From the IMG/VR virus record IMGVR_UViG_3300044645_001661: a stretch of DNA of 64,000 bases; one strand, written 5' to 3'. A program made the translations under genes and the position numbers. Below the pieces are notes generated by a model. The model was not told the origin of the DNA. It ran no database searches and saw only the letters and a program-made list of their open reading frames with translations. The stretch comes from a virus. Its lineage: Duplodnaviria; Caudoviricetes. Below, one piece after another: positions 9,701 to 64,000 of the stretch. Each line of letters begins with the position of its first letter. The stretch's first letter is position 1.

Positions 9701-11301
9701 CTGGATATCAAATTGGTGACATCTTAACTGCAGAGCAAATTGGAACACAATCTCTTGGTAGAAATTTACAATTATCACTGACAAATATTTCAGGAATAAA
9801 TGAATTAATTCTGGATCAAGTCCAAGGAGAGTTTAAAGTTAATGGTGCCATGCCAATTCAGTATGTTGATAGTGTTGCTGGAATTACAACTATATTAACA
9901 ACTTCTAGTTCAAATGCATTAATAACTGATGTTGAATTGTATTCTCTAGAGACTGATGGACTGCATATTAAAGTGAATCATAAAAATCATGGTATGCATT
10001 CTGAAATTAATAGGGTTCAAATTAGTAATATTGATACAGATATAATCCCAACAACATTAACTACAGACTATACAAATTCAGAAACTGGTAGTATTAGTAT
10101 TGCAAGCACAGTATCATTTACTACTTTTGAGAATGTTTCTGTTGCATCAACAAATCCTGGATATGTTTTAATCGATAATGAAGTAATTTCTTACACTGGT
10201 GTTGGTAATGGTCAATTAATAGGAATAACTAGAGGTATTGATCAGACAAGATCTTATAATTATTCATCAGGTTCAATAGTTAAAAAATATGAATTAAATG
10301 GAGTTTCATTAAGAAGAGTCAACAAAACTCATGATTTACAAGATGCTCTTGTTCAAAGACCAGTAGGATTAGATTATTATTATATTAAACTCGACATGTC
10401 TTCAAATGGAACTGATAGAAATAGTGGTTCTGGATTTGAAAAATTATATATTAATGACACCAAATCAACAGGAGGTAACTCTATAAGTGCTTCCCAAAAT
10501 ATACAATATGAAATAGCAAGACCAATAGTTCAAACATTAGTTTTATCTGAAACTAACATTCGTTCTTCCATTAAAACTACAACTGGAACTAGTATTGATG
10601 GTGGTGAAGTATCATTTATTGAATCCGAAATACTTCCATTAAATATATCAGAAAATACTTATTTTGATACTCCACGAATAGTAGCATCGAAGGTCAATGA
10701 ACTGGATAAATTAAATAGTTTACCAGGAAATAAATCATTAAGTGTAACTTTCAACCTATCAACTTTAAATAATACTGTTTCACCAGTAATCGATTTAGAT
10801 AGAGTTGGATTAATTTTAACAACAAATAGAGTAAATAATGCCATTGATGATTATATTAATGATAGTAGAACTTCTTCAATATTAGAAGATCCAACGGCAT
10901 TTATTTACACCAATAAACTAATTGGTCTTGAAAATTCTGCATCCTCTATTAAAATTTTATTATCTGGTTATGTAAATGTCTTTAGTGAAATTAGAGCATT
11001 CTACACTATTTCAAATACATTACAATCCAATCCAATTTACTATCCTTTCCCAGGATATAATAATTTGGACGTAAATGGAAACGTAATTGATATCTTTAAC
11101 AGTGATGGATTACCTAATAAATTAGTACCTAAAACAGATGTACTTGGATTTGGTAGTCGTGAAATAGTCTTTAAAGATTATGAATTCTTTATTGATGATT
11201 TACCAGAATTTAGATATTTTGGTATAAAGTTAATAGGAACGTCTACTAATCAGGCACATCCTCCAAGAATAAAAGACTTACGTGTAATTGCTTTAGCTTA
11301 A
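3793..11301 (+). CDS. Large virion structural protein, VrlC/DUF4815-like (2502 aa)
   Basis: MPKETNLNVSPYFDDF, LFKPGLPVQARELTSLQS, APGADRLKI, RFKSGIFVDNF, DPLGQSF and terminal PPRIKDLRVIALA; follows gp8 as in cyanomyoviruses. Confidence 0.85.
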   Translation: MPKETNLNVSPYFDDFDLEKQYYQVLFKPGLPVQARELTSLQSVLQNQIEQVGNHLFKEGSVVIPGQINYNNTLFAVEVESEYLGIPFASYAQQLLGKIIKGENSNVNAKIILILGPEFSDRGYHTIYINYLSAGTDEKQSFDNGETLLLQENLVLNNLNFQSGQGFAIAAPTDCTSTGSAVFLSEGIYFLRGSFVKVNEQVLVLDPHANNPSYRVGFEILEEVVTSSQDQSLNDNAKGFNNYAAPGADRLKITATLAKKPLDSEKNENFIEILIVRNGFVSHINETPEYNVIVDELARRTFDQSGDFYVKPFSIVSRESLNDGKGNNGIFNSNQLTYGSLTPSSNLGVYKISPGKAFIKGYEVNVKGVTFLDFEKTRTTKTLENQKINFITGPTLTLNRVFGAPKIGFGTDTTISLRDRRIGAAHSISSGKEIGVARVYDYALESGSYSSIDQNLNEWDIALYDIQTYTEITLNEPITLSTPTFIEGKSSGATAYLRYNTTTGIVTAYNGQGNFIFGEKLVFNGLEGNRVATAITAYSIDDVKSLYSLVGSGVTFNSDVKPQLKASYGQVIITPKSGTAPGICTVTSNDLVFLNVVKPGDLVSFTNPGINNSQLKTFARIESVIDDYNIIISGITTVSNICDGGLPTSQITPVDFSILKSKFQSSSDNTLYTPLPKKWISNVSLTNSNLTIRKEFNVTITANTTNTIQADEDEFFLPFDEERYVLVNSSGYIEPLTPDKFRYTNGNREIRIFGLNGVGSARLIATLEKINIKNKVKNVNRVNSIIIDKSKFAQSGIGSTTLNDGLSYGSYGYGLRVQDKELCLLVPDVTKVYGIFESSDTTNPKLPRISLFNLNGPTGRVDDLIVGEEFIGKESGAIGIFVSKFDSLNLEFIYLNELRFKLNESVEFKETKISGVINAFFDGDSNITNRYLLDSGQKETICDYSKLIRLADNKEPKKKIRIIFESSQYSSSDSGDLTTVSSYDQINYCDLPLINNNTRLTDILDIRPRVLPFNPSSSTSPFEFFGRTFSEANNSSKNIIASDESITLTYSFYLPRIDKIYLNKNRKFQLINGIPSENPLPPIPIDDSLEVATINLPPYICNANSLDISLKQHKRYRMQDVAQLEDRIRNLEYYTALSLLETNTENLFVPDRNGLSRFKSGIFVDNFSTRNSQVKIGPVKNSIDPENLELRPSPFTTEIDLQLGSKSLIGIGTTASPIADTKFVNDLVGNNVRRTGQLLTIDYDEVVEIKQPFATRVENVVPYLVTSYRGTIELFPSSDIWIDQVRLEPQRLELDLYTESREELIHSGFDPQTGLTPVTWDAWEATWTGSTSTIQNAANFVGSSSQQIGRTITTTNTFQNVQTTTVTRTGTETRSGTQLKLSEQVDVVNEGDRVVSTSVIPFMRSRNIEFTGKSFKPFTRIYTFFDGVDVNKFVLPKLIEIQMVTGKFNVGELITGRMSTGSETEINSSTPFITFRVAKSNHKYGPIANPLDTFTVSPYNQSYTIPEEYSSSSILLNVDTASLSDMTQGLYRGFIQTGMRLRGEQGEAIVTNVRLFTDNVGTIIGSFFIPNPNIISNPSFETGIKLFKLTSSSTNSSVGGVVRTDGEEQYFAQGTINNQQETIRTTRKPRFDEETVSESRGATDVQTSTAVSTFTTVTTITLPPPPPPAPPWGGDPLGQSFFITNSTGVFVTALDVFFNTKDDTLPVTVQLRPVVNGVPSTDIYPFSEVVIEAKDVITSSDASLPTKVIFPSPIYLNPNSENAIVLLSQSYEYTAWISRMGEIDIGTLSQPESRQVLVSAQPMLGSLFKSQNGSTWTPSQYEDLKFNLYSARFKGQNGSITFYNPDLSEGNAQIAKLLKDSLEFNSRKIIVTLNDTVDVSAVDLGNTVIQLNNTATANYVGAGGSASGNLKIVNAGIGYTPSNGSSFTFTNVPLVSSTGTGKNATANITIGTVSGLSGVAIAATISNGGSGYQIGDILTAEQIGTQSLGRNLQLSLTNISGINELILDQVQGEFKVNGAMPIQYVDSVAGITTILTTSSSNALITDVELYSLETDGLHIKVNHKNHGMHSEINRVQISNIDTDIIPTTLTTDYTNSETGSISIASTVSFTTFENVSVASTNPGYVLIDNEVISYTGVGNGQLIGITRGIDQTRSYNYSSGSIVKKYELNGVSLRRVNKTHDLQDALVQRPVGLDYYYIKLDMSSNGTDRNSGSGFEKLYINDTKSTGGNSISASQNIQYEIARPIVQTLVLSETNIRSSIKTTTGTSIDGGEVSFIESEILPLNISENTYFDTPRIVASKVNELDKLNSLPGNKSLSVTFNLSTLNNTVSPVIDLDRVGLILTTNRVNNAIDDYINDSRTSSILEDPTAFIYTNKLIGLENSASSIKILLSGYVNVFSEIRAFYTISNTLQSNPIYYPFPGYNNLDVNGNVIDIFNSDGLPNKLVPKTDVLGFGSREIVFKDYEFFIDDLPEFRYFGIKLIGTSTNQAHPPRIKDLRVIALA

Positions 11302-22351: not shown

Positions 22352-24013
22352 ATGGCAAAATTATTTGGATTTTCTATAGAGAATAAGGAATCTATCTCAC
22401 CTTCTGTAGTATCCCCCGTCCCTCAAAACAATGAGGACGGGGTTGATCATTATTTAACAAGTGGTTTTTTTGGATCTTATGTAGATATAGAAGGTGTTTA
22501 TAGAACAGAATATGATTTAATTAAAAGATATAGAGAAATGTCACTTCACCCAGAAGTTGATAGTGCCATTGAAGATATTGTTAATGAAGCTATTGTTAGT
22601 GATAGTAACGATACTCCAGTACAAATTGAATTATCTAATTTAAATGCCAGTGATGGATTAAAAAAGAAAATAAGAGAAGAATTTAAAACAATTTTAGATT
22701 TATTAGATTTTGATAAAAAATCTCATGAAATTTATAGGAATTGGTACGTTGATGGAAGACTTTATTATCATAAAGTAATTGATCTAAAAAATCCTCACAA
22801 AGGTATCCAAGAATTAAGATATATTGACGCATTAAAAATGCGTTACATTAGACAATCTGTTAGTAAAAAGAAAAATAATGGTGGAGTTAGGATAAAAAAT
22901 TCTAACGATGAAAATCCAATGGATTATGATTTTCCAGAAATTGAAGAATATTTTGTGTATAATCCCACTGCACAATCTCCAATTGGGTCTATGAATGGAA
23001 GAAATTCCAGTCAAGCAAATTCTGGTATAAAAATTGCAAGGGATGCAATAACTTATTGTACTTCTGGATTAGTAGACAGAAATAAAGGAACTTGTTTATC
23101 TTACTTACATAAAGCAATCAAATCTCTCAATCAACTTCGCATGATTGAAGATAGTCTTGTTATCTACAGGTTATCTCGTGCCCCAGAACGTAGAATTTTT
23201 TATATCGACGTAGGTAATTTACCAAAAATTAAAGCAGAGCAATATTTACGTGACGTTATGATGCGTTATCGTAATAAACTTGTTTATGATGCTAGCACTG
23301 GTGAGATTAGAGATGATAAGAAGTTCATGAGTATGCTTGAGGACTTCTGGTTACCTCGCCGTGAAGGTGGTAGAGGAACTGAAATTACAACTCTTCCAGG
23401 TGGTCAAAACCTTGGTGAAATTACAGATATTAAATATTTCCAAAGTAAATTATATAAATCTTTGAATGTTCCCCCATCAAGAATAGAAGGTGAAGGTGGA
23501 TTTAATCTTGGAAGATCATCTGAAATTTTACGAGATGAACTTAAATTTACCAAATTTGTTGGTAGATTAAGAAGACGTTTTTCTAACATGTTTAATGACA
23601 TGTTAAAAACTCAATTAATACTAAAAAATATCGTAACTCCAGAAGATTGGGAGCAAATGAGTGAGCATATTCAATATGATTTCCTTTATGACAATCACTT
23701 CTCAGAATTAAAAGAAGCAGAATTAATGACTGAAAGGTTAAATATTGCGGCTACTGCTGAACCTTATATTGGTAAATATTATTCTCAAGATTATGTAAGA
23801 CGTAAAATTTTACGCCAAACTGATGAAGAAATTATTGAACAAGATCAACTTATTAAAAAAGAAATTAAATCTGGTATTATTCCAGATCCAAATGCACCAA
23901 TAGATCCAAATACTGGTATGCCTATGGATGCAAGTCAAAATAATATCGATGGTGCATCTGGAAAAGTTCCAATAGAACCAGGAATAAACGCATCAGATAC
24001 AGAAGTTAAGTAA
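22352..24013 (+). CDS. gp20: Portal protein gp20
   Basis: MAKLFGFSI, SLVIYRLSRAPERRIFYIDVGNLPK, MLEDFWLPRREGGRGTEITTLPGG. Confidence 0.97.
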   Translation: MAKLFGFSIENKESISPSVVSPVPQNNEDGVDHYLTSGFFGSYVDIEGVYRTEYDLIKRYREMSLHPEVDSAIEDIVNEAIVSDSNDTPVQIELSNLNASDGLKKKIREEFKTILDLLDFDKKSHEIYRNWYVDGRLYYHKVIDLKNPHKGIQELRYIDALKMRYIRQSVSKKKNNGGVRIKNSNDENPMDYDFPEIEEYFVYNPTAQSPIGSMNGRNSSQANSGIKIARDAITYCTSGLVDRNKGTCLSYLHKAIKSLNQLRMIEDSLVIYRLSRAPERRIFYIDVGNLPKIKAEQYLRDVMMRYRNKLVYDASTGEIRDDKKFMSMLEDFWLPRREGGRGTEITTLPGGQNLGEITDIKYFQSKLYKSLNVPPSRIEGEGGFNLGRSSEILRDELKFTKFVGRLRRRFSNMFNDMLKTQLILKNIVTPEDWEQMSEHIQYDFLYDNHFSELKEAELMTERLNIAATAEPYIGKYYSQDYVRRKILRQTDEEIIEQDQLIKKEIKSGIIPDPNAPIDPNTGMPMDASQNNIDGASGKVPIEPGINASDTEVK

Positions 24014-25799
24014 TTTTAATAAATTTATTTTTTAAAAGACCCTTTCTTCTTAAGATAAAAAGATTATTTTTATCATATCCTATAAAGTCATTATCGATTT
24101 TATAGGATATTTTATTTTTCTCCCAAGTTTCTATATTATATTTTGAGTTTAAAGTTAATGGATATTTTTGATTTTCATTAAAAATAAATTTTTTCTGAAT
24201 ATCAATAATTTCTGAGTCAATTTGTACAATATTTGAGCAATATAACTCAATAAATTCAAATAGTTTTGATTTATTTTTAAATAAGAATTCAAAACTACTA
24301 GCATGTAAAGAATGTCCAGTTTTGGCACCCTGTGTTATCTTCCCAGTCTTGATATAAGTAGAGACAATATTATATATTTCTTGATAATGAACTCCAATGA
24401 ATCCATCATCATTTTTTATACAGTCAAATAAATTATCATAAAATTTTCTATAACTTATATTTAAAATATTAAAGCAATACTTCGATAGCACTTGAGTATA
24501 TCCTGCTATATGCAATTGAACAATCAACCATCCGTACATATAACATTCAATTAATTCATCTGTGGTTAAAGTATCGGTTTTATTAATTAATTCTATACTT
24601 TCTTTTACTTCTGAGTAATCTTTTTCATTAGTGAATGAAACGTAATCCTCTGCTTTGATAGTTTCAATACCATATATTTTTCTAGATAATTCACTGTTCA
24701 ATTCACTGTTACCAAAAACTTGACAAAACCAAACATCAATAGATTCATGTTGCCCAAATTCTAATATTTTAGAGAATCCTTCCTTCCAAGAATCTATAGT
24801 TTCGTTTGGTAATCCTAAAATTAACTCGGTATAAGTTTTTACATCATGCTCTTTACTTTTTTCAATATGAGATGTAATGTTATTAATACTCATATTTTTT
24901 CTTTTAATTGCTTTAAGTGTTGGTTCATTCATACTTTGAACACTTATAGTTACACCTCTACTAATATCTCCAAGTATTTTTGCTATTTCAAAAACTACTT
25001 CTGTAGAATTTTTAGAATATTGCAAATTAACAGATTCTAATTTGCTATTATCAGCAACTTCTCTTATTAATTTTGCTATTTCTAAATCTCTTTCTTTATA
25101 CATTCCAAAATTTGCATCTGCACAAAATATAAATGCAACATTATTATTTTTAATCCATTCAAGATCATTTTTTACACGATCTAGATTAAACATTTTAACT
25201 TTACTATAGGTTAATCCACCCCAATCACAAAAAGTACATGAATGGGGGCACCCTCGATTAGTTTCAATAGTAGAAGCCCAAAGAGTATTTGGATTGTCTT
25301 TTACAATTTGATCAAATACTTTAGATTCATATGGACTTGGAAAGTCTAATTGCTCTATTCTACTTTTTTGATATATTTTTTCTATCGTTTTATTTTGAAT
25401 AATACTAGTTAATAAATCTAAGTAACTTTCTTCACCTTCACCAATTATTACACAATCTATAAATTCATTATCAAGAATTTTCAAAGTTGCTTGTGGTCCA
25501 CCAAATTGAATAATACAGTCTGGAAATTTTTCTTTTATTAGTTTTGATAAAAATAGACAATATTGCTCATTCCAAACGTAACAACTAAAACTGCACACTG
25601 TTGGATTGTCCAATCTTTCCAGTATTTTATCTGGATGCTCTCTTTTAAAGATAATATCTTTTAATACAAAATTGTTTTTTACTTCATCAAATTGATTACA
25701 ATAACTCCATAAACAACCAACACTGTAGGGAAGCCAATATGTGTCTTCATTTCTAATTTCTACAGAATATTGCGGTTGAAATAAATATATATTTTTCAT
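24006..25799 (-). CDS. Cobalamin-binding radical SAM enzyme, copy 2 (downstream copy)
   Basis: N-terminal B12-binding-like region (SFSCYVWN...IQFGGPQ), CxxxCxxC motif ETNRGCPHSCTFCDWGG, DANFG, ELILGLPNET. Confidence 0.85.
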   Translation of the reverse strand: MKNIYLFQPQYSVEIRNEDTYWLPYSVGCLWSYCNQFDEVKNNFVLKDIIFKREHPDKILERLDNPTVCSFSCYVWNEQYCLFLSKLIKEKFPDCIIQFGGPQATLKILDNEFIDCVIIGEGEESYLDLLTSIIQNKTIEKIYQKSRIEQLDFPSPYESKVFDQIVKDNPNTLWASTIETNRGCPHSCTFCDWGGLTYSKVKMFNLDRVKNDLEWIKNNNVAFIFCADANFGMYKERDLEIAKLIREVADNSKLESVNLQYSKNSTEVVFEIAKILGDISRGVTISVQSMNEPTLKAIKRKNMSINNITSHIEKSKEHDVKTYTELILGLPNETIDSWKEGFSKILEFGQHESIDVWFCQVFGNSELNSELSRKIYGIETIKAEDYVSFTNEKDYSEVKESIELINKTDTLTTDELIECYMYGWLIVQLHIAGYTQVLSKYCFNILNISYRKFYDNLFDCIKNDDGFIGVHYQEIYNIVSTYIKTGKITQGAKTGHSLHASSFEFLFKNKSKLFEFIELYCSNIVQIDSEIIDIQKKFIFNENQKYPLTLNSKYNIETWEKNKISYKIDNDFIGYDKNNLFILRRKGLLKNKFIKIT

Positions 25800-27604
25800 T
25801 CATCAATTTTAGATACAGTATTTTTTAGTAATCCCTTTCTTCTTAAAACCCAAAAATCATTTCGTATTGACTCATCTCTTTTATTTGAAACCATTAAACT
25901 TGTTGGTTTATCTTCCCATGTTGTTGTATCAACAGAAGAAGGAATAGTAATAGGATAATCTACCTCAGAGTCATAAACAAAGTTTTTTTGAAGATCCCAA
26001 AATTCATTAGTTATACCACCAAATTTTACCAGAGATTTATCAATTAAGGCAAATACTTCATTCCTATTATTCATAAAAAATGAAAAATCATTAGGAGAAT
26101 TAAATTCTAATGAATGTCCACTTTTATTATCTGGTAAAATTCCCTCTGTTAAGTAATTTTTTACATCGAACTTTAATTTTTGAAAATATTTACCAATTAT
26201 TCCGTTGTCAGTTTGAACCTTTTCAAATATTTCATCATAAAACATCCTATAAGTTATATTTTTATTGTAAAAAAGATATTTTGCTATTAGTTGAGCATAT
26301 CCATTTATATGGAATTGTATTACTGTCCAAGCATACAAATAACTTTCAATTAATTCCGAAGTTGCCATTGAATTAGTTTTATTAACTATCTCAACAATTT
26401 CTTTGAATCCATGATATTCCTTAGGATTAGTGAATGAAATATAGTCATACGCCTTTACTGTTTCAATTCCGTGCATCTTTCTAGAGAATTCACTTCCCAA
26501 TTCACTATTACCAAATAATTGGCAGAACCAAACATCAATCGATTCGTGTTGACCACACTCCAAAACTTTAGATAATCCGTCTTTCCAAGTTTCTAAAGTT
26601 TCCTCGGGTAATGGCAAAATCAGTTCAGTATATGTTTTAACTCCATATTCTTGACTCATTCTCATATGATTAGTCAAATCATTTATATGAAGATTCTTTC
26701 TCTTAATAGCCTTCAAAGTTGGTTGATTCATACTTTGAACGCTAATTGTTATTCCCCTAAGACAATGTTCTTCAAGTATTTTTGCAATTTTAAATACTGC
26801 TTCTGTTGAATTCTTAGCAAATTGTAAAACAACGTCACCAACATTGGTTTCTTTTAATTTGTCTCTGATTATCTCTGCTATAAGTATATCTCGCTCCTTA
26901 TACATTCCAAAATTAGCATCAGCAACAAATAAGTATCCAATATTATTATTTTTTATCCAAGTAATATCATCTTCAACTCTTTTTATATCAAAGTGATCTA
27001 CTTTACTCATAGTAGTTCCACCCCAATCACAAAAAGTACATCTATGAGGGCAACCTCGATTTGTTTCTATAGTTGCAGCCCAAATTACATTTGGATTTTC
27101 CTCGATTATTTTACTAAAAATATTAGATTGATATGGACTAGGATAATCCAGTGTAGATAATCTAGTTCTTTCGTAATATTTTTTTATTTCTTTGTTTTCT
27201 GTAATAGATTTAAGTATATCTAAAAAGTTTTCTTCCCCCTCAGAAATTATTACAGTATCAATAAAATCATTCTCCTCTTGCATTTTTTTAGATGCTTGAG
27301 GTCCACCAAATTCAATAATGCAATTTGGAAATTTTTCTTTTACTAGTTTAGCTATTCCTAGACAATACTGTTCATTCCAAATATAACAACTAAATCCACA
27401 TAAAACAGGATTATCCAATCTTTCTAATATTTTATCTGGATGTTCTCTTTTAAAAATTATATCCTTTAAAATAAAATTATTTTTTACTTCATCAAATTGA
27501 TTACAATAACTCCAAATACATCCAACACTATATGGTATCCAATAATTTTCTTGTTTTCTAACTTCTACAGAATATTGTGGTTGAAATAAATATATGTTTT
27601 TCAT
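25796..27604 (-). CDS. Cobalamin-binding radical SAM enzyme, copy 1 (602 aa from ATG 27604)
   Basis: GFSCYIWN...IEFGGPQ, ETNRGCPHRCTFCDWGG, DANFG, ELILPLPEET. The start is chosen to match its paralog (MKNIYLFQPQYSVE); its stop overlaps the paralog's ATG (ATGA). Confidence 0.85.
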   Translation of the reverse strand: MKNIYLFQPQYSVEVRKQENYWIPYSVGCIWSYCNQFDEVKNNFILKDIIFKREHPDKILERLDNPVLCGFSCYIWNEQYCLGIAKLVKEKFPNCIIEFGGPQASKKMQEENDFIDTVIISEGEENFLDILKSITENKEIKKYYERTRLSTLDYPSPYQSNIFSKIIEENPNVIWAATIETNRGCPHRCTFCDWGGTTMSKVDHFDIKRVEDDITWIKNNNIGYLFVADANFGMYKERDILIAEIIRDKLKETNVGDVVLQFAKNSTEAVFKIAKILEEHCLRGITISVQSMNQPTLKAIKRKNLHINDLTNHMRMSQEYGVKTYTELILPLPEETLETWKDGLSKVLECGQHESIDVWFCQLFGNSELGSEFSRKMHGIETVKAYDYISFTNPKEYHGFKEIVEIVNKTNSMATSELIESYLYAWTVIQFHINGYAQLIAKYLFYNKNITYRMFYDEIFEKVQTDNGIIGKYFQKLKFDVKNYLTEGILPDNKSGHSLEFNSPNDFSFFMNNRNEVFALIDKSLVKFGGITNEFWDLQKNFVYDSEVDYPITIPSSVDTTTWEDKPTSLMVSNKRDESIRNDFWVLRRKGLLKNTVSKIDE

Positions 27605-27627
27605 TTCATTGAACTTTATGTATGTTG

Positions 27628-27642
27628 TATTTATCATAAATA
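27628..27642. promoter_or_regulatory. Divergent back-to-back late promoters TATTTAT-C-ATAAATA
   Basis: Perfect inverted repeat giving ATAAATA on both strands, between the divergent starts at 27604(-) and 27666(+). Confidence 0.7.
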
Positions 27643-42219: not shown

Positions 42220-42401
42220 AACAAAAATTTCCTTTTGATCACGTAGTAAAATACGATACCAAAGAAGTTTGGATTGTTTGTAATAGTGTAACTACTGCTT
42301 TAGGTATTTCCGCATTAGTTAAAAAATACTATCCTGGTTATACTGGACGCATTGCAAGCGAACAATATTTAAGTCAACTGAAAAACCAGTTGGCAAACTG
42401 A
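42216..42401 (+). CDS. Small hypothetical protein
   Basis: 61-aa ORF with ATGA coupling to the upstream gene. Confidence 0.6.
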   Translation: MKQKFPFDHVVKYDTKEVWIVCNSVTTALGISALVKKYYPGYTGRIASEQYLSQLKNQLAN

Positions 42402-42466
42402 CCACTGACTGGATCTCAGATCCAAATTTGACCTTATAATTATTCAGTTGAAACAAACACCTCATT

Positions 42467-43582
42467 ATGACTCTCTCCTCTGACTACATCCGCACTTCCC
42501 TTCAAAACCTCTATGGTAATAACATCACTAGTGCTGATGTTCGTGCCTGGTGTAGTATGAATGGTTCAAACTATCAAACCGTAAGTAATAAAATCTATCA
42601 ATACAAAACTGGACATGGCAAATGGAATCTTGAAGTGACTCAACAAAAAGTAGAAGAAATCGAACGCACTTTTCAAGCACCTGCCGTGGTCCCTCCTGTA
42701 GAACAAAATCTTATCCCAGAAAAAGATGATACCTTCGTCAAGTTTGGTAACTTTAACGATATTAAACGCATTATTCAGTCCCGTCTCTTTTATCCTACGT
42801 TCATTACGGGTCTTTCGGGTAATGGTAAAACGTTTTCTATTGAACAAGCGTGTGCTCAATTGGGTCGTGAATTGATTCGTGTCAACATTACGATTGAGAC
42901 TGACGAAGATGATTTGATTGGTGGATTTCGTCTTGTTGATGGTAGTACTGCTTGGCACAACGGACCTGTGATTGAAGCACTTGAGCGTGGTGCTGTTCTG
43001 CTGCTGGATGAGATCGATCTTGCTTCTAACAAGATTCTGTGCCTCCAATCTATTCTTGAAGGTAAAGGTGTATTCCTTAAGAAGATTGGTCGTTGGGTAA
43101 AACCTGCTTCTGGTTTTAATGTTTTTGCTACTGCTAACACTAAAGGCAAAGGTAGTGATGATGGTCGTTTTATCGGAACCAACGTTCTTAATGAGGCATT
43201 CCTCGAACGATTCCCTGTAACTTTTGAACAGTCCTATCCTTCTCCCGCGACTGAGCAGAAGATCCTTGAAGGTATCGCTCTCGATCTTGGTGTGGAAGAC
43301 CGCGACTTCTGTAAGCGTCTGGTTGACTGGGCAGACATCATTCGCAAGACCTTCTTTGATGGTGGTATTGAGGAAATTATCAGCACCCGTCGTCTGGTTC
43401 ACATCATTCGTGCCTACAGCATCTTCCAAGATAAAGCAAAGGCAATCCAAGTTTGTGTGAACCGCTTTGATGATGAAACCAAGCAAGCATTCCTTGAACT
43501 TTATGATAAAGTGGATGCTGATTTCAAGATGCCTGAGGGTGAGCATGTAACTTACGATCTTGACCAGAAGGCTCCTTTTTGA
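42467..43582 (+). CDS. MoxR-type AAA+ ATPase (cyanophage 'CobS-like')
   Basis: Walker A GLSGNGKT, Walker B LLLDEID, ATANTKGKG, NEAFLERF, ISTRRLVH. Confidence 0.85.
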   Translation: MTLSSDYIRTSLQNLYGNNITSADVRAWCSMNGSNYQTVSNKIYQYKTGHGKWNLEVTQQKVEEIERTFQAPAVVPPVEQNLIPEKDDTFVKFGNFNDIKRIIQSRLFYPTFITGLSGNGKTFSIEQACAQLGRELIRVNITIETDEDDLIGGFRLVDGSTAWHNGPVIEALERGAVLLLDEIDLASNKILCLQSILEGKGVFLKKIGRWVKPASGFNVFATANTKGKGSDDGRFIGTNVLNEAFLERFPVTFEQSYPSPATEQKILEGIALDLGVEDRDFCKRLVDWADIIRKTFFDGGIEEIISTRRLVHIIRAYSIFQDKAKAIQVCVNRFDDETKQAFLELYDKVDADFKMPEGEHVTYDLDQKAPF

Positions 43583-56001: not shown

Positions 56002-56025
56002 AAATCACGAATAAAAATATAATTG

Positions 56026-57105
56026 ATGAAAAAATTATTTAAAATATTGACAAGTGAAAGAGTTGAATATAATAAAAAAAGTATAAAAATTTTTGATATG
56101 TTGAGATATTCATCCCATATTAGTAATATTTTGGAAAGTGACAAAAATAATTATATTAAAAATATGTGTTTATTTTTGGGAAAAAAAATAAGTAATAATA
56201 CAATCTTTTTTATTGATGATGAGAAATTTGAGCAGCAATACGAAAAACTTGAAGTATTTTTTGAGTTTATAAAAAGAATAGATGCTAAAAATAAAAATAT
56301 AATTTATATTGTAAAAACACAAATATTTGCAGACTATTTTGAAAAGTATGGAATAAAAAATTATATATTTGAACCATTATTGGAAGTTATTAATTTTTAT
56401 TATGGGTCTTTCAGAATAAGAAAATCTTTAGTAGGTGATAAAATAAAAGATGTATCATTTTGTTCATTGAATGGTACAAAAAATCAAGTTAGAGAATTTC
56501 TATTGTATAGATTAAATGATTATAATTTGTTACCTGAGGGATATGTTACTGCATGTGGACAATTTTTTCTCGATTTAAATGGTGAAGTCAAAAACCATAT
56601 ATTTGAAGATAAATTTTTTGATAAATTTTATTATGATGAAGGTCATAAATATTATCAAGATAAAAATTTAGTAAATATTCTTTATATTGATAAAAATATT
56701 CCAGGAAATATTTTTTTAACTGTGGAGTCATTTAATTACGATAAAATAGAAGAATCATTAAGACCACTATATACTGAAAAAACTTCTACTCCATTTTTAA
56801 CAAAAAGATTGCCTTTAATTATTGGATATATGAATATTATTGAAAATCTTAAAATGGATGGGTTTGATATGTTTGATGATATAATTGATTATGAATATGA
56901 TAAAATTGATCACATGGACTATCAAAAAAAAGTTGATCTTTGTATAAAAAATAATTCACATATTCTTAAACATAATAATTTTTATGATAATCCAGAAATT
57001 GATGAGAGATTGGAATACAATAAAAAACATTATAATGTGTGGGTAGAAAATAAAATTTTAAACTTTGAATCTAATATAGAAGAAAAATTAAAGTTATTTG
57101 TTTAG
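56026..57105 (+). CDS. Hypothetical protein, possibly GT-B/GT10-like glycosyltransferase
   Basis: C-terminal VES...LYTEKTSTPFLTKRLPLIIG...GFDMFDDIIDYEYD resembles the TEK motif region of GT10-like enzymes; a weak by-eye match. Confidence 0.45.
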   Translation: MKKLFKILTSERVEYNKKSIKIFDMLRYSSHISNILESDKNNYIKNMCLFLGKKISNNTIFFIDDEKFEQQYEKLEVFFEFIKRIDAKNKNIIYIVKTQIFADYFEKYGIKNYIFEPLLEVINFYYGSFRIRKSLVGDKIKDVSFCSLNGTKNQVREFLLYRLNDYNLLPEGYVTACGQFFLDLNGEVKNHIFEDKFFDKFYYDEGHKYYQDKNLVNILYIDKNIPGNIFLTVESFNYDKIEESLRPLYTEKTSTPFLTKRLPLIIGYMNIIENLKMDGFDMFDDIIDYEYDKIDHMDYQKKVDLCIKNNSHILKHNNFYDNPEIDERLEYNKKHYNVWVENKILNFESNIEEKLKLFV

Positions 57106-57112
57106 ATATATT

Positions 57113-57643
57113 ATGGAAGATAAATTTATTACTGGTAAAATAGATAGTAATTTAATTGGGGATTTTAAAAATATAGATTATCCTGGAAGAAGGCAATTTA
57201 GGGATGATGAAACTGTTGAGAGGTGGAAAAATCTTGGGCATTTGTATGTAAATTATACTGGATTTATTCGTGAAGAATATAGAGGTCTACCTGATTGGTG
57301 TAATTTAGTACTTGATGAAATAAAAAATCAATTAAAAATTTATAATATTTCTTGCTCTCTATATCGTATGCCTCCAGGAACAATAATGCCAGAACATAAA
57401 GATGCATATTTGAATTATAAAAAAATATTTAAAATAGATGATGTGAATAATATTTGTAGAGTATTAGTATTTTTGGATGATTGGAAATCTGGGCATTATT
57501 TTGAATTGAATGATAATCCAGTGATACAATGGAAATCTGGAGATTACTACATGTGGACTGGAGAAACACCACACATTGCTGCTAATATTGGAAGAGAAAA
57601 TAGATATACAATGCAGATAACTGGAACTATTGATCATGGATGA
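57113..57643 (+). CDS. 2OG-Fe(II) oxygenase
   Basis: MPPGTIMPEHKD (HxD), distal PHIAAN His, and a 2OG-binding Arg in RYTMQIT. Confidence 0.75.
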   Translation: MEDKFITGKIDSNLIGDFKNIDYPGRRQFRDDETVERWKNLGHLYVNYTGFIREEYRGLPDWCNLVLDEIKNQLKIYNISCSLYRMPPGTIMPEHKDAYLNYKKIFKIDDVNNICRVLVFLDDWKSGHYFELNDNPVIQWKSGDYYMWTGETPHIAANIGRENRYTMQITGTIDHG

Positions 57644-58361
57644 AAGAAGAGCCGTTATAGATGAGTTAGTAAAAAATTATCCTAATTACTGCTCAACCTT
57701 TACATTTAAATTGAAAAAAGGTATACCTGGAGAAGTAATACACAAAGAGGGTTTTGTTAACTGTTATATGGATGTAAAAAATTATCTTATTTACATGCAT
57801 ATTGATAAGTGTGCGAGTACATCAATAACTACTGCACTAAGAGATCAAAAACCATATTTTGTAAAAATGGATGATATTCCAAAATCTGAAGAATTTGCTA
57901 AACTTTTGGTCCAAAAAGAATATACATTTTTTACTGCAGTTAGAGATCCAATTTCTAGATGGATGTCTGGATTGAATGAATTTATGTGTAGATATAGACC
58001 TCCAATTAATTATGTTATTGAACAACTTAAAAATAAAAAATATGTTTTTGATGAGCATACCGCACCACAACATTTGTTTTTAAGATTATGTTTAGAAAAT
58101 AATGGAAATCTTATTTGTGTAAAAATGGATTCTGATATGGAATTTAAAATTAATGATGTTATTAGGTGTTCTTTAAAAAATGAATTTATGCGTGAAAAAT
58201 ATATCCCACTTAAAATTCCACAATTAAGGAGTTCAAAATATTTTATACCAAATTATATAAGTGTATGTAAAAAAATGTATGAAGTTTATGTAAAAAATGA
58301 TCCTGAAGAATTTAATAAATTATATAAAATTGATTTTGATTTATACAATAATGCACTATGA
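57636..58361 (+). CDS. Sulfotransferase (family 2-like)
   Basis: 5'-PAPS loop YMHIDKCASTSI and 3'-PAPS motif FTAVRDPISRWMS, plus H..PQ. Confidence 0.7.
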   Translation: MDERRAVIDELVKNYPNYCSTFTFKLKKGIPGEVIHKEGFVNCYMDVKNYLIYMHIDKCASTSITTALRDQKPYFVKMDDIPKSEEFAKLLVQKEYTFFTAVRDPISRWMSGLNEFMCRYRPPINYVIEQLKNKKYVFDEHTAPQHLFLRLCLENNGNLICVKMDSDMEFKINDVIRCSLKNEFMREKYIPLKIPQLRSSKYFIPNYISVCKKMYEVYVKNDPEEFNKLYKIDFDLYNNAL

Positions 58362-58960
58362 ATAGTTTCGATACCGTAAAGAAATTAGAAGAATTAATAG
58401 CAAACTTTTTTGGATCACCATATGCAGTTGCAACTGATTGTTGTACCCATGCTATAGAATTGTGTTTAAGATATGAAAAGTATGACAATATTGAAATTCC
58501 AGAACAAACGTACATTTCAATTCCATTTACTGCAGAAAAACTTAATTTAAAATGGTCTTGGAAAAAAAATTATACCTGGCATGATCATTATTACATTTGG
58601 AATACAAATATAATAGATGCGGCTGTTTTTTGGGAACGGAATGGATATATACCAAAAACATATATGTGTTTAAGTTTTCAGTATAAAAAACATTTAAATC
58701 TTGGTAAAGGTGGCATGATACTATTAGACAATTATGATGCTTATACTGATCTTAAAAAAATGGTTTATGATGGTAGAGAATCTGATAAACCATGGGGAGA
58801 ACAGAACATTAAAACAATAGGATATCACTACTACATGACACCAGAAACTGCTGAAACTGGTATACATAAGTTTGAAGAAGTATCTTCTATGAAACCAAAA
58901 AGATGGAGTTATCTTAATTATCCATTTTTACCTAGTATGGATGTATTTAAAAAATTATGA
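58358..58960 (+). CDS. Short DegT/DnrJ/EryC1/StrS-type PLP aminotransferase
   Basis: YAVATDCCTHAIELCL, IDAA, SFQYKKHL.LG.GGMIL (PLP lysine region), GYHYYM; only 200 aa. Confidence 0.7.
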   Translation: MNSFDTVKKLEELIANFFGSPYAVATDCCTHAIELCLRYEKYDNIEIPEQTYISIPFTAEKLNLKWSWKKNYTWHDHYYIWNTNIIDAAVFWERNGYIPKTYMCLSFQYKKHLNLGKGGMILLDNYDAYTDLKKMVYDGRESDKPWGEQNIKTIGYHYYMTPETAETGIHKFEEVSSMKPKRWSYLNYPFLPSMDVFKKL

Positions 58961-59835
58961 ATTTAGATAATAAATTAAAAGGATTACCTCCAATATTTTA
59001 CCTAAATCTGGATCACAGAACAGATAGAAAGGAATATATGGAAGGGCAATTTAAAGAAAGAGGTATAACAGATTATACTAGAATATCAGCATCTCGATTT
59101 GCTACATCTAAAATTGATGAATGGGGGCATAGATTAGATTTGATGTTATTGGCTAAATCTGATGCATCTATCGTAATGAATCAGTTTACTACAATAATTG
59201 ATTGGTATAATTCTGGTATATCAGAAACTTGTATAATAATGCAAGATGATCTCAGTTTAGAATTAATTGATTATTGGATGTTTGATTGGGAAACAATTGT
59301 AAAAAGTTTGCCATATAATTGGGATTGTGTTCAATTTTATCATTGTCATAATGAAGAAATGCGTATGCACTTACATAAAAGAAGTTATGGAAGCTCATCT
59401 GCTGCTTGTTATATGATTAATAGATGGTACGCAGAAAAATTAATTAAATTGCACTTGCAACCAGATAATTCATTCAAACTTAAAAATAATTTAAAAGATG
59501 TAAGTGTTCCTAAAGAGTGTTATAGTAGTGATGATTTTCTATTATATCAAATTGGTGTAAGTTATAGTTTACCAATTTTGTGTTTGAATCAAAGACTTTC
59601 TCAAACTCCCGATAACAAATTGCAGGAAGATGAAACTGATGAAGACTATGATCCAGTAATAAGCATATATCATAATAAAATTCATGATATACTTGCTAGT
59701 ACATGTGTGAGAAGATGGTGGGAGAATGAAAGTTCAAAATATAAAGCGGAAGATATTTTAAGTTACGGTGGTTCAATCCATAGAAAAATGATCGTTCCTA
59801 TTCCTAAATTTAACAGAAAGGTACTTCCAAAATGA
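58957..59835 (+). CDS. GT25-like glycosyltransferase paralog 1
   Basis: YLNLDHRTDRKEYME, RISA, IIMQDD, LPYNWDCVQF. Confidence 0.65.
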   Translation: MNLDNKLKGLPPIFYLNLDHRTDRKEYMEGQFKERGITDYTRISASRFATSKIDEWGHRLDLMLLAKSDASIVMNQFTTIIDWYNSGISETCIIMQDDLSLELIDYWMFDWETIVKSLPYNWDCVQFYHCHNEEMRMHLHKRSYGSSSAACYMINRWYAEKLIKLHLQPDNSFKLKNNLKDVSVPKECYSSDDFLLYQIGVSYSLPILCLNQRLSQTPDNKLQEDETDEDYDPVISIYHNKIHDILASTCVRRWWENESSKYKAEDILSYGGSIHRKMIVPIPKFNRKVLPK

Positions 59836-60695
59836 ATATAGAATTAAATAAATTAAAAACAATAGGATTTCCCAAAGTTTTTTATTTGAATGCGGATTCT
59901 AGACCAGATAGGGGAAATTATATAGAATCATGTTTTGAAAAATGGGGAATAGAACGATACGAAAGAATTCCTACAAGTAGATATACTCCAACCAATTATC
60001 ATGAATGGGAAGATTTAATTTTAGATGATAATATTTTACAAACTCCAGAGGAAATATCTAAAACTATCAATCATTTAAAAACAATAATTGATTGGTATGA
60101 TAATGGGGATGAAGAATATTGTATAATAATGGATGATATTATTGATATTAACTCAATAGATACTTGGATGTTTGATTGGGAAACTCTATATAAAAATCTT
60201 CCATATAATTGGGATTGTGTGCATCTATTCTTTTATAGTAATAGAACTATTAATATGCACCTAAAACCAAAAGACGATGATACTAAGGGTGTGTATTGTT
60301 ATATGATAACACGACAATTTGCTAAAAAAATTAAACAACTTCATTATGTTGATGATAAGTTTAAATTTTTTGTTAATACTAGAAATTTAAAACTACCAGA
60401 ATATAAGTATGGATCTCTAGAATCATTTTTATTTGATTTGGGTATAACCTATACATTGCCCGTATTTTATTTGAGTCTAAAATATTTTGGTGAACCTAAA
60501 GAATTGGAAGATATTTTATGTAAACTTTCTTCGGAATCTATTGAGTTTTGGTGGAAAATAAAGTCTAAAGAATTTTCCATGCAAGAATTTTTCTCATACA
60601 ATAAAAGATATGATTGGAAAATGGAAGTTCTTTTTGACGTAAAAGAAAAACAAGTATATATGGATAAAGTTGAAAAAATAATGTTATGGATTTAA
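59832..60695 (+). CDS. GT25-like glycosyltransferase paralog 2
   Basis: YLNADSRPDR, NHL, IIMDD, LPYNWDCVHL. Confidence 0.65.
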   Translation: MNIELNKLKTIGFPKVFYLNADSRPDRGNYIESCFEKWGIERYERIPTSRYTPTNYHEWEDLILDDNILQTPEEISKTINHLKTIIDWYDNGDEEYCIIMDDIIDINSIDTWMFDWETLYKNLPYNWDCVHLFFYSNRTINMHLKPKDDDTKGVYCYMITRQFAKKIKQLHYVDDKFKFFVNTRNLKLPEYKYGSLESFLFDLGITYTLPVFYLSLKYFGEPKELEDILCKLSSESIEFWWKIKSKEFSMQEFFSYNKRYDWKMEVLFDVKEKQVYMDKVEKIMLWI

Positions 60696-61540
60696 AGAAC
60701 AAATTAAAAAATATGCCGAAAGTCTATTATTTTAATTTGGATAATAGAACTGATAGAAAAAAATATATGGAAAAACAATTTGATAGGTGGGGCATAACCT
60801 ATCAAAGAATATCTGGAACAAAATACTTAGCATCAAAAAATAAAGAATGGAATCATTTAATTATTGATGTAAAAAATTATAAGTTATTAGTTCCAATTGC
60901 AGCTAATGCAATATCTCATTTGGAATTTTTGAAGAAATGGTATGAAGAAACAACAGATCCATATGTTCTGTTGATGGAAGATGATTATGATTTAAACTTG
61001 ATACAATATTGGCATTTTGATTGGGATTACTTGATGTCAAGATTGCCATATGATTGGGATTGCTTGCAACTAGGATTTGAAAATCCAATAGGGATACCTT
61101 TTTATCTTCATCCGATGGCAACCTCTCATGATTTTGGTCCATGTTTACTTAGTAGAGATTATGTTTATAAATTAATCTCATTACACTGTGTCGGTGATAA
61201 GTACAAGTTAATTAATACAATATCCAATGGTGCCTGGAATGCAGAAGAAGGTGGATGTGGTTCTGGAACGGTAGATTATTTTATATGCCACTGTGGAAAA
61301 ACCTATTCTATACCTTTAATAACAATAAATCCAACATTCGGTAGTTTCGAAAATAATAGTCTACTTCAAAAACTCTATAGAAATAATGGGGATGTAATGG
61401 CTAGAAATACATATTATTATTGGTGGCAAAATGAAAGAGATAAATTTACCTTAGATGATTTTTTTACTTATGGTAAAAAATATGACCGTAAGATGATATT
61501 GGATCAAAATAAATATGGAAACTATAGACCTAGAAAATAA
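60686..61540 (+). CDS. GT25-like glycosyltransferase paralog 3
   Basis: YFNLDNRTDRKKYME, ISHL, LLMEDD, LPYDWDCLQLG. Confidence 0.75.
   Translation: MDLKNKLKNMPKVYYFNLDNRTDRKKYMEKQFDRWGITYQRISGTKYLASKNKEWNHLIIDVKNYKLLVPIAANAISHLEFLKKWYEETTDPYVLLMEDDYDLNLIQYWHFDWDYLMSRLPYDWDCLQLGFENPIGIPFYLHPMATSHDFGPCLLSRDYVYKLISLHCVGDKYKLINTISNGAWNAEEGGCGSGTVDYFICHCGKTYSIPLITINPTFGSFENNSLLQKLYRNNGDVMARNTYYYWWQNERDKFTLDDFFTYGKKYDRKMILDQNKYGNYRPRK
60974..61062 (+). repeat. 89-bp perfect direct repeat, copy 1 (in GT paralog 3)
   Basis: Identical base-for-base to 63513..63601. Confidence 0.9.
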
Positions 61541-62420
61541 ATTAAGGGGATTCCCCCATGTATATTATTTTAATCTCGATCAAAAAACTGATCGTAAAAA
61601 GTACATGGAAACCCAATTTGATCGTTGGGGTATAGAATATACTAGAATGTCATCTAACATATATTCTATATGGAATTATGACGATTGGACTACAAATAAG
61701 GTAACTGGTGACAAAAGTGATACCGATCAAAGACTTTATGCCCCAGCAATGATGCATTTTGAGTTATTTAAAAGGTGGTTACATGATACAGACGAAGAAT
61801 ATATTCTTGTAATGGAAGATGATTATGATTTAAGTTTAATCGAATATTGGCATTTTGATTGGAATTATTTGATGTCTAAATTGCCTTATGATTGGGATTG
61901 TATTCAATTGGGATTTGAGACTTCAAATGTAATATCATTTTACCTTCATCCAGTAAAAGAAGATTATTCATTTGGACCATGTTTATTTAAAAGAGAATAT
62001 GTAGAAAAACTTTTAAGACTTCATTCTGAAGGATTTAAATATAGATTTGATTTTAACATTTCCAATTGTCATTGGAGAGATAGAAGAAATTATAAAAATG
62101 CTGCAGGTTCTTTAGAATATTTTATGTGTCAATCTGGAAGAACGTATTCAATTCCTTTAATCGCTTTAAATCCTTATTTTAGTTTTTGGTATTATAAGGA
62201 TAAATGGATACCAAAGTCTTACTTTCAAATGTGCTATGATTCTTATTATGATTGGTGGCAAAATGATAGAGACAAATTCACTTTAGATGATTTTTTTACT
62301 TATGGAAAGGTAAATGATAAAATTATGGAAAGAAATCTAGAATATTGTGACACTAAATATTTTGAAGAAAAGACCAAAGTATGTAGAGAAAAATTTTTGA
62401 AAGAATATGGATTTAAGTAA
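61515..62420 (+). CDS. GT25-like glycosyltransferase paralog 4
   Basis: YFNLDQKTDRKKYME, MHF, LVMEDD, LPYDWDCIQLG. Confidence 0.75.
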   Translation: METIDLENKLRGFPHVYYFNLDQKTDRKKYMETQFDRWGIEYTRMSSNIYSIWNYDDWTTNKVTGDKSDTDQRLYAPAMMHFELFKRWLHDTDEEYILVMEDDYDLSLIEYWHFDWNYLMSKLPYDWDCIQLGFETSNVISFYLHPVKEDYSFGPCLFKREYVEKLLRLHSEGFKYRFDFNISNCHWRDRRNYKNAAGSLEYFMCQSGRTYSIPLIALNPYFSFWYYKDKWIPKSYFQMCYDSYYDWWQNDRDKFTLDDFFTYGKVNDKIMERNLEYCDTKYFEEKTKVCREKFLKEYGFK

Positions 62421-63207
62421 TAAGTTATTCGGAATACCAAAAGTATATTATTTTAATTATGATGAGCATAAAAATAGAAATTACCATATGGACAGAAATC
62501 TTGGTAATTTGAAAGTTGCTAATTATGAAAAAGTTTCAGCATCAAAATATACTTCTAAAAATTATGAAGATTGGAAAAATTTGATTATTGATGTTGAGAA
62601 TTATAAATTAACTCCAAATATTGCTGGATATGCAATTACTGTATTGGAATTTTTAAAAAGATGGTTAGAAGAAACTGATGAACCAGAATTAATTATAACA
62701 AAAGATACTATTGATTTTGATTTAATTGAATACTGGAAATTTGATTGGAATTATTTAAAATCCAGACTTCCTTATGATTGGGATTGTATTCAACTTGGAT
62801 TTGAAAATTCTCAGTATATACCATTTTATTTACATCCAATACTTCCTTCTAGTACTTTTGGTCCATCACTTCTCAATAGACACTATGTTAAAAAAATAGT
62901 TAAATTGCATTGTGTTGGAGATCAATATAAGTTGAATAATTATATTGCAAATATGTATTTCAGTGGACAATCTGGAACAGTTGATTATTTTATTGGACAT
63001 AATGGCAATACATACTCAATGCCACTATTCCCTAATAAACCAGAATTTTTTGACAAGAATACTAAAAAGTATGTTTTAGTTTACATTTGTAAAAATGCAT
63101 ATCATGAATGGTGGAAGCGAGAAAGTGGCAAATTTAATTTGGATGAGATATTTACTTATGGAAAATATAATGATATTGGAATGGTAAAAAAACTTCGTAA
63201 AAAATAA
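62407..63207 (+). CDS. GT25-like glycosyltransferase paralog 5 (degenerate motifs)
   Basis: YFNYDEHKNR, IITKDT in place of MEDD, LPYDWDCIQLG. Confidence 0.65.
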   Translation: MDLSNKLFGIPKVYYFNYDEHKNRNYHMDRNLGNLKVANYEKVSASKYTSKNYEDWKNLIIDVENYKLTPNIAGYAITVLEFLKRWLEETDEPELIITKDTIDFDLIEYWKFDWNYLKSRLPYDWDCIQLGFENSQYIPFYLHPILPSSTFGPSLLNRHYVKKIVKLHCVGDQYKLNNYIANMYFSGQSGTVDYFIGHNGNTYSMPLFPNKPEFFDKNTKKYVLVYICKNAYHEWWKRESGKFNLDEIFTYGKYNDIGMVKKLRKK

Positions 63208-63215
63208 TTAAAATT

Positions 63216-64000
63216 ATGAACATTAATTTGTCAAACAAACTAAAAGGACTGCCACACATCTATTATGTAAATTTGGATAATAGATCTGATAGAAAAAAAT
63301 ATATGGAGTCCCAGTTTGATTTTTGGAGAATAAAAGATTACACTAGAGTATCTTCTTCAAAATACTTAGCATCTGAATCTGAATCTTGGGCAAATAAAGT
63401 TATTGATGGGAGCATAAAAAATCTATCATCATATGTTGTTGGTAATGCAATAACACACTTAGAACTTTTAAAAGATTGGGTTAATAATTCTAGTGATGAA
63501 TATGTCATTTTAATGGAAGATGATTATGATTTAAACTTGATACAATATTGGCATTTTGATTGGGATTACTTGATGTCAAGATTGCCATATGATTGGGATT
63601 GTATTCAATTGGGATTTGAATCAAAAGAATTTATTCCATTCTTTTTACATCCTAAATTGAGACATAGTTATTTTGGTCCTATTATGATTACTAGAGAGTA
63701 TGCTAAAAAAATATTGCGATTGCATTGTGTCGGTGAAGACAAATATAGTTTAGATAAATTAATTGCTGATTATAATTTTAAAGTTTGTTCTACTTCTGTA
63801 GATTACTTTATGGGACATACTGGCAGAACGTACTCTATTCCATTAATAACTACAAATGTTGATCTAGGTAGCACTGAAAGTGATATACAAATAGAAAGAA
63901 GACATCATGTTAAATCTAGAGCCGCATACTATTATTGGTGGATGAAGAGAAGTATGAAGTATAATCTAGATGAATTTTTTACCTATGGAAAACCAAATGA
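63216..64000 (+). CDS. GT25-like glycosyltransferase paralog 6 (3'-truncated by the window; not in ORF track)
   Basis: Hand translation MNINLSNKLKGLPHIYYVNLDNRSDRKKYME...ITHL...ILMEDDY...LPYDWDCIQLG; open to the window end. Confidence 0.75.
   Translation, partial: MNINLSNKLKGLPHIYYVNLDNRSDRKKYMESQFDFWRIKDYTRVSSSKYLASESESWANKVIDGSIKNLSSYVVGNAITHLELLKDWVNNSSDEYVILMEDDYDLNLIQYWHFDWDYLMSRLPYDWDCIQLGFESKEFIPFFLHPKLRHSYFGPIMITREYAKKILRLHCVGEDKYSLDKLIADYNFKVCSTSVDYFMGHTGRTYSIPLITTNVDLGSTESDIQIERRHHVKSRAAYYYWWMKRSMKYNLDEFFTYGKPN
63513..63601 (+). repeat. 89-bp perfect direct repeat, copy 2 (in GT paralog 6)
   Basis: Identical base-for-base to 60974..61062. Confidence 0.9.

Follow-up and report, generated by a model that had tools for sequence, protein, structure and literature searches.

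Cobalamin-dependent (class B) radical S-adenosylmethionine (SAM) methylases are known mainly from cellular antibiotic, lipid, pigment and cofactor pathways. The nearest described systems to the one reported here are TokK and ThnK, the sequential methylases of carbapenem C6 (PDB-ids: 7kdx, 7kdy), and CysS, the iterative O-alkyl methylase of cystobactamid (PDB-ids: 9n1b-d). In TokK, Trp76 lies 3.8 Å beneath the cobalt and Arg280 binds the carbapenam carboxylate; Trp76 and Trp215 are common only to TokK, ThnK and CysS among characterised methylases (10.1101/2021.07.10.451909). The equivalent of Trp76 in CysS is Trp75 (PMC12846815). Here we describe a tandem pair of viral genes predicted to encode enzymes of this kind, found in a 64,000-nucleotide stretch (the window) of the IMG/VR record IMGVR_UViG_3300044645_001661. 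Judged from their sequences and a structural model, the two proteins are very probably active, late-expressed and non-redundant B12 radical SAM C-methylases; that their substrate is a sugar or glycan is the reading we lean towards.

The record is 148.8 kb long and about 77% complete, and the window corresponds to G000:C1:78672-142671 (IMG/VR) read on the opposite strand. By its sequence the source is an uncultured T4-like cyanomyovirus from lake water. The portal protein is 79% identical to those of the Synechococcus phages S-SCSM1 and S-SM2, the genome carries psbA and psbD, and the phage DNA was found again in 20 lake-water metagenomes. The pair is laid out as follows:

24006..25799, minus strand: downstream paralogue (P0001), 597 amino acids (aa), a TokK/CysS-like cobalamin-dependent radical SAM enzyme with a cobalamin domain (about residues 1-165), a radical SAM core (about 166-400) and a C-terminal domain (about 401-597)
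25227-25250, minus strand: cluster motif CPHSCTFC of the downstream paralogue (residues 184-191)
25796..27604, minus strand: upstream paralogue (P0002), 602 aa from ATG 27604; the open frame extends to ATG 27637, which would give 613 aa
27029-27052, minus strand: cluster motif CPHRCTFC of the upstream paralogue
25796..25799, minus strand: ATGA start/stop overlap of the two genes, read as translational coupling
24006..24013: convergent stop-stop overlap of 8 nucleotides between the downstream paralogue and portal gp20

These are the only credible minus-strand genes in the window (24006-25799 and, with its full open frame, 25796-27637); the rest lie on the plus strand. One flank consists of terminase, sheath, tube and portal gp20 (22352-24013), the other of a 52-aa gene, phrog_1742, a virion protein, an 89-aa gene, the gp21 protease, the scaffold and the major capsid protein. 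The head-on overlap with the portal gene leaves no space for a terminator. In the cultured relative S-SM2 the order is gp20, two small genes and gp21, and the pair's site is empty. The initial annotation of this DNA had described two coupled paralogues of some 600 aa with intact CxxxCxxC motifs, very AT-rich and running backwards through an otherwise plus-strand region between portal gp20 and the prohead genes, and this description holds throughout. The two proteins are 58% identical over their full length, and the guanine-plus-cytosine (GC) content of the pair is 26.9% against 33.0% for the genome, which places it among the lowest 1.5% of 3.6-kb windows.

Both proteins match the Pfam Radical_SAM model (PF04055) with 55.9 and 52.5 bits against a cut-off of 29.5 (E ~1e-14). 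A phmmer search of solved structures returns TokK at the top (E 7.7e-68, residues 21-483) and CysS second (E 3.5e-37); N-terminal residues 21-165 can be matched to TokK's cobalamin domain with no large gap, and the similarity in sequence fades past residue 483. The best NCBIfam model is that of the KedN5 family (NF033712, methylcobalamin-dependent C-methyltransferases) with 165.4 and 159.3 bits, and PHROGs has no family for P0001 or P0002. An AlphaFold2 (AF2) model of the downstream paralogue, built on 30 homologues, has a predicted local distance difference test score (pLDDT) of 90.4 and a predicted template modelling score (pTM) of 0.90. It superposes on cobalamin-bound TokK (PDB-ids: 7kdx, 7kdy) across all three domains (TMq 0.86-0.88, 633-677 alignment columns) and on CysS with a TM of 0.75-0.77, whereas OxsB, TsrM, MiaB and AprD4 superpose at just 0.4-0.5. 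W76 and W193 of P0001 align to W76 and W215 of TokK in identical sequence contexts (SCYVWN and FCDWG). These two tryptophans, the CxxxCxxC cysteines and the GGP and GEGE motifs are invariant in the 30 family members aligned (alignment A3). The position of TokK Arg280 is occupied by Asn in P0001 and by Val in P0002; the enzymes are therefore not orthologues of TokK or ThnK and their substrate must differ. With the modelled fold and the tryptophans kept and Arg280 lost, the pair belongs to the TokK/CysS structural subgroup and is orthologous to no characterised member of it. Class B had been assigned to the pair before, and the TokK alignment, the fold and the hallmark residues bear the assignment out; the examples then given for the family (HpnP, GenK, Fom3 and PoyC) do not fit, as by sequence and model the closest characterised enzymes are TokK, ThnK, CysS and KedN5, iterative methylases of sp3 carbons.

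On the sequence trees the pair falls in a distinct, strongly conserved clade of uncultured T4-like cyanophage contigs. Homologues number more than 3,400 in a large protein database of metagenomes (the best 120 listed are 51-100% identical, many of them on long contigs), and clustering at 50% gives 1,100 representatives with E < 1e-30. We examined 54 IMG/VR loci, about 45 of which hold the tandem pair at the same site, on the opposite strand, between the portal and the small prohead genes. A blastn search of a phage collection with the 3.6-kb stretch had no match, and tblastn of P0001 against the same collection retrieved two gut-phage records only (22-25% identity) and no close homologue. In full-text literature searches, no account of cyanophage B12 radical SAM enzymes and no described function for such a pair in phages came to light; the initial annotation had likewise named no characterised function for one in a T4-like phage.

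All pair members form one clade (support 100/100), which divides into a downstream clade (92/88) that includes P0001 and an upstream clade (99/97) that includes P0002 and occasional third copies. The existence of two orthologous clades implies that the duplication predates these phages and that both copies have been retained. The third paralogue (529 aa) stands upstream of the GT25 (family 25 glycosyltransferase) gene in three loci (L022, L023 and L041; for example L023 3839-5428) and groups with the upstream copy of the window (100/99); P0002 lies nearest the third copies of L023 and L041. Ratios of non-synonymous to synonymous substitution (dN/dS) are 0.04-0.08 within subtypes (about 0.05-0.08 for downstream orthologues), which is strong purifying selection on both paralogues; the upstream clade is faster-evolving and more varied, with dN/dS up to 0.24 between subtypes. 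Identity between the two copies falls from 72% in the cobalamin domain and 66% in the radical SAM core to 44% over residues 401-480 and 35% in the C-terminal domain, so the copies differ most in the domain that forms the substrate channel in TokK and CysS. Judged by these alignments, the two copies are not redundant, their C-terminal, substrate-side domains having diverged.

Natural fusions of two TokK-like B12 radical SAM modules also occur: P0134 (L061 8001-11852, 1283 aa), whose neighbours are GT2, DegT and further B12 radical SAM genes, and P0141 (1271 aa). The fusions hint that the paired enzymes may work together. The best identity to a cellular protein is 39% (L062, an isolated copy next to ilv genes and part of a transposase, an uninformative context), and the 80 best cellular loci include no cyanobacterial one. 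The pair is thus not a copied host pathway, and its identity as a host-derived auxiliary metabolic gene was rejected.

Late promoters of the T4 type read TATAAATA, and cyanophages use NATAAATA. Three features precede the pair:

27628..27642, both strands: 15-nucleotide palindrome TATTTAT-N-ATAAATA, interpreted as two late promoter cores of the T4 type placed back to back
27628-27634, minus strand: ATAAATA that would serve the radical SAM pair
27636-27642, plus strand: ATAAATA, the putative core for the small head gene at 27666

ATAAATA is rarer in the window than expected (24 copies observed against 49), many of the plus-strand copies stand directly ahead of gene starts, including those of sheath, portal and scaffold, and the minus strand has 2 copies only. 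On the pair's side, GATAAATA ends 24 nucleotides ahead of ATG 27604, so that the late-type promoter proposed by the initial annotation is present. Translation from this ATG yields the N-terminus MKNIYLFQPQYS (MKNIYLF...), which matches that of P0001 and for this reason marks ATG 27604 as the likely start. Both open reading frames exist, and this likely start replaces 27637 or 27642; positions 27628-27642 are, on their sequence, promoter palindrome and not coding. ATAAATA is found in 27 of 35 distinct upstream regions taken from relatives that carry the pair with its partner genes (the cassette) and from three single-copy loci. Most cassette-bearing regions show it as TATTTAnnATAAATA, and this bidirectional palindrome is conserved across the cassette-bearing phages (upstream regions of L003-L057), which suggests that the cassette was integrated by way of a mirror image of the promoter that the small head gene already had. 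Late expression of the pair would follow from this promoter.

Some 30 cassettes begin with a GT25-like gene of about 300 aa that is joined to the pair by 4-nucleotide overlaps; in L003 such overlaps link the GT25, upstream and downstream genes. Pfam gave no match for the L003 partner genes (306 aa and 220 aa) or for the small head genes, and PDB profile searches returned noise; the 306-aa family is identified as GT25-like solely via its paralogues in the window. This family (alignment A1, DDYD motif) has seven paralogues in the genome, six of them in tandem, next to other putative glycan genes:

58957..64000, plus strand: six-gene GT25-like tandem array, the last gene passing the window end
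56023..58960, plus strand: head of the glycan island, a 360-aa gene and the three genes below
57098-57643, plus strand: Asp/Asn-hydroxylase-like gene
57630-58361, plus strand: sulfotransferase
58358-58960, plus strand: DegT-like 200-aa gene

The array genes match the Pfam Glyco_transf_25 model, one of them (60686-61540) above its gathering threshold (29.1 bits against 24). Another (61515-62420) is the orthologue of the cassette GT25 and sister to all cassette-linked copies (100/99), a position in the GT25 tree that parallels that of P0001 in its own clade. The island 56023-64000 has a GC content of 26.9%, equal to that of the pair. We infer a functional link of the GT25 array to the pair.

Viral outgroups with a single copy (47-50% identity) point in the same direction as the cassettes. 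They overlap an extended short-chain dehydrogenase/reductase (SDR) gene for a nucleoside diphosphate (NDP)-sugar dehydratase/epimerase, have the DegT-like 200-aa gene, a GT1 and a 'sporadic carbohydrate cluster' 2-oxoglutarate (2OG)-oxygenase/LIC12192 fusion nearby, and lie in sugar islands far from structural genes. The same type of DegT-like gene is near the radical SAM gene in L045 (single-copy) and in L162 (51% identity), where nucleotidyltransferase and PNP_UDP genes are also found. As a separate observation, a GTP cyclohydrolase I gene is co-directional with the SDR and single-copy B12 radical SAM genes in two loci (L047 588-3984; L045 8001-11709); in L047 it overlaps the SDR start, which may be a pterin/7-deazaguanine link or mere adjacency.

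A conserved 220-aa gene lies between portal and cassette in L003 (11724-12386, minus strand) and in 27 other loci (alignment A2) and is absent from this genome. It has an invariant H74-x-D76...H168 and weak matches to cupin/2OG-oxygenase folds (TM 0.3-0.4), and might act together with the cassette as an oxygenase.

Outside the window, the genome has a second glycan island (G000:C1:45.6-56 kb, L158) with genes for GDP-mannose 4,6-dehydratase (Gmd), a GDP-fucose-synthase-like (Fcl-like) protein, GT11, GT6, GT4/GT1 and GT25 (Glyco_transf_25, 45.9 bits), and a HAD-nucleotidyltransferase fusion. It also encodes a 292-aa protein with an SLH domain and a small radical SAM protein of 270 aa that resembles viperin/MoaA. 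For a phage, it is uncommon to encode an SLH protein or GT6/GT11 enzymes of the blood-group type. Within the window, one further gene may touch on the cofactor:

42467..43582, plus strand: CobS-like AAA+ gene (AAA_5 and CbbQ_C), TIGR01650 73 bits, far under the cut-off

The genome gave no match to CobS_N (PF12556); the CobS-like gene may support cobalamin supply and is not cassette-specific. It is preceded by a 727-aa gene (window 40036-43582 for the two) and has an antisense 326-aa open reading frame inside it (42566-43546) that is probably spurious. Elsewhere in the window, a 2502-aa open reading frame (3793-11301) precedes the genes for neck and tail.

The following scheme would account for these data. 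Going by the TokK/ThnK/CysS/KedN5 family, one SAM would methylate cob(I)alamin and a second would be cleaved at the [4Fe-4S] cluster to give the 5'-deoxyadenosyl radical, which would abstract hydrogen from an unactivated sp3 carbon; methylcobalamin would then pass its methyl group to the resulting substrate radical. Transcription would be late, from a gp55-type ATAAATA promoter mirroring that of the neighbouring head gene. The substrate would be a nucleotide-sugar, or a sugar already in a glycan, made by the phage's own glycosylation genes (the GT25-like array, DegT-like, sulfotransferase and Gmd/Fcl). The paralogues would act at different positions or in successive steps to build methyl or longer branched alkyl groups, with the host supplying (pseudo)cobalamin, SAM and reductant, and the glycan could be placed on the virion, on the host's envelope or elsewhere. 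A sugar or glycan substrate, which we put at slightly better than even, is favoured because of the GT25 coupling in relatives and the NDP-sugar genes around single-copy outgroups. A more specific version, in which two or three specialised B12 enzymes coupled to a dedicated GT25 produce glycan sugars with radical-installed C-methyl or longer branched alkyl groups (ethyl or isopropyl, of the sort built by TokK and CysS) that are shown on the virion or the infected cell, is tentative and on balance doubtful; if true, display of such a glycan would tie phage fitness to host pseudocobalamin.

Several points weigh against this scheme. The Pfam B12-binding model gives 22-24 bits, under its gathering score of 32.1, for the N-terminal domain that the initial annotation had called B12-binding-like, though its end-to-end alignment with the cobalamin domain of TokK and its fold uphold that description. 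The KedN5 matches cover profile positions 61-403 of 624 and fall far short of the model's 700-bit cut-off. TokK, ThnK and CysS use pantetheine-linked antibiotic intermediates, not sugars, and with Arg280 replaced no substrate inference carries over from TokK. No sugar gene adjoins the pair in the window, where the link is made by orthology with relatives and by shared composition. Cellular relatives (30-39% identity) are mixed, with sugar genes at about 3 of 11 and otherwise exporters of ribosomally synthesized and post-translationally modified peptides (RiPPs), P450 and thiamine pyrophosphate enzymes, and a Pfam tally of the 84 neighbours of these 11 is heterogeneous. PMC5816740 states that most cyanobacteria make pseudocobalamin. 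A TokK-type pocket may or may not accept that cofactor.

The same evidence bears on what else the pair might do. The initial annotation had pointed to virion proteins or glycans, or to packaged DNA; gene linkage supports the glycan part, and direct modification of virion proteins or DNA found nothing in its support. C-methylation of a virion protein or peptide of the head or core, after the manner of PoyB/PoyC or the glutamine methylase of methyl-coenzyme M reductase (MCR) on peptides, would make the head-module location a reflection of the substrate. The pair is indeed flanked by the portal and prohead-core genes, with which it seems to have a two-way late promoter in common; B12 radical SAM peptide methylases exist, and one of them, MgmA, is among the fold matches (rank 9). 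MgmA, however, superposes with a TMq of 0.44 against 0.88 for TokK, and RiPP C-methyltransferase identity was rejected with TIGR03975 at 42-43 bits (cut-off 282). The cassette travels with a glycosyltransferase and without a precursor-peptide-like gene, the single-copy outgroups are distant from structural genes, and the site is a mere gap after gp20, vacant in S-SM2; we consider a virion-protein substrate quite improbable. Nucleotides or packaged DNA, with late hypermodification of base or sugar near the packaging genes, would suit the expected late expression beside the portal/terminase module and the GTP cyclohydrolase I in the gene strings of L045 and L047. But the conserved cassette has no nucleotide-metabolism, glycosylase, transferase or DpdA-like gene, its partner is GT25-like, and the nearest enzymes have sp3 carbons of small molecules as their targets, which leaves DNA a very improbable target.

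A role in auxiliary or secondary metabolism apart from phage glycans, on a host small molecule such as a pantetheine- or carrier-linked metabolite, lipid, pigment or cofactor, is unlikely, if somewhat less so than the foregoing. TokK, ThnK and CysS all take pantetheinylated substrates, cellular relatives are often found in natural-product-like clusters (P450, halogenase, YcaO, C39 exporters), and the composition of the pair stands apart, which is frequent among acquired genes. Yet no viral locus examined has a carrier-protein, polyketide synthase/non-ribosomal peptide synthetase (PKS/NRPS) or CoA-ligase gene. Hopanoid methylase identity was rejected (HpnR and HpnJ at 35-51 bits against cut-offs of 650 and 578), as were BchE and PhpK identities, whose scores are far under the cut-offs. 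Use of cobalamin for a reaction that transfers no methyl group (a rearrangement, a ring contraction or a dehydration, like those of OxsB and AprD4), or a non-catalytic role for one paralogue, would draw on the non-methylases within class B and on the faster, more varied evolution of the upstream clade. The fold and the two hallmark tryptophans are instead those of the methylase subgroup (0.75-0.88 for TokK/CysS against about 0.5 for OxsB and AprD4), and both paralogues retain all cluster cysteines under purifying selection; such chemistry has little to recommend it.

The sugar or glycan reading, if true, would add a previously unrecognised tailoring step to phage-made glycans, bring testable chemistry to the poorly understood GT25 islands of cyanomyoviruses, and make phage reproduction dependent on the host supply of Fe-S, SAM and (pseudo)cobalamin. 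A radical-alkylated glycan, if that too were true, would be new viral glycan chemistry and would link the B12 economy of lakes and oceans to phage infection. The enzymes would also be compact new members of the iterative-methylase subgroup and as such useful for enzymology. As predicted from gene order and promoters, the clade forms part of the late programme of structural genes and is glycosyltransferase-coupled in most relatives; it is a phage-specific form of a known kind of enzyme in a new genetic setting, with chemistry that is probably conventional for the class.

Chlorovirus PBCV-1 has capsid glycans with methylated sugars and mycobacteriophages have glycosylated capsids; such viruses supply their own glycosyltransferases and sugar-tailoring enzymes, expressed with the structural genes, and use ordinary SAM O-methyltransferases. 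We know of no report of a viral glycan that is C-methylated by radical, B12-dependent chemistry. The PBCV-1 and mycobacteriophage glycans sit on virions; the one proposed here may or may not. The glycan islands of cultured cyanomyoviruses (S-SCSM2R ORF302-310, S-SM2 and P-SSM2) contain the same GT25-like family, a DegT-like gene of about 200 aa and 2OG oxygenases; they differ in having no TokK-like B12 enzyme by tblastn of the phage collection. S-SCSM2R has a single small radical SAM protein of 266 aa, annotated as SkfB/NifB/PqqE family, and its island was named 'antibiotic synthesis genes' by the authors, who left the reason for its presence unclear (PMC12801897).

CysS is the second-best match in sequence and fold and shares the tryptophan under the cobalt. 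The CysS/KedN5 subgroup builds branched alkyl groups through repeated methylation; the pair, unlike these enzymes, has no aminobenzoate, naphthonate or carrier-protein context, and the sequence of the C-terminal domain is not conserved. TokK and ThnK have the same three domains as the pair, an N-terminal Rossmann cobalamin domain, a radical SAM core and a large C-terminal domain. The last was described as distinct to TokK and is present in the model of the downstream paralogue. Identity in the structural alignment with TokK is about 22-24%. Unlike TokK and ThnK, the two enzymes are phage-encoded, are conserved as a pair, and are linked to glycosyltransferase and NDP-sugar genes instead of a beta-lactam cluster.

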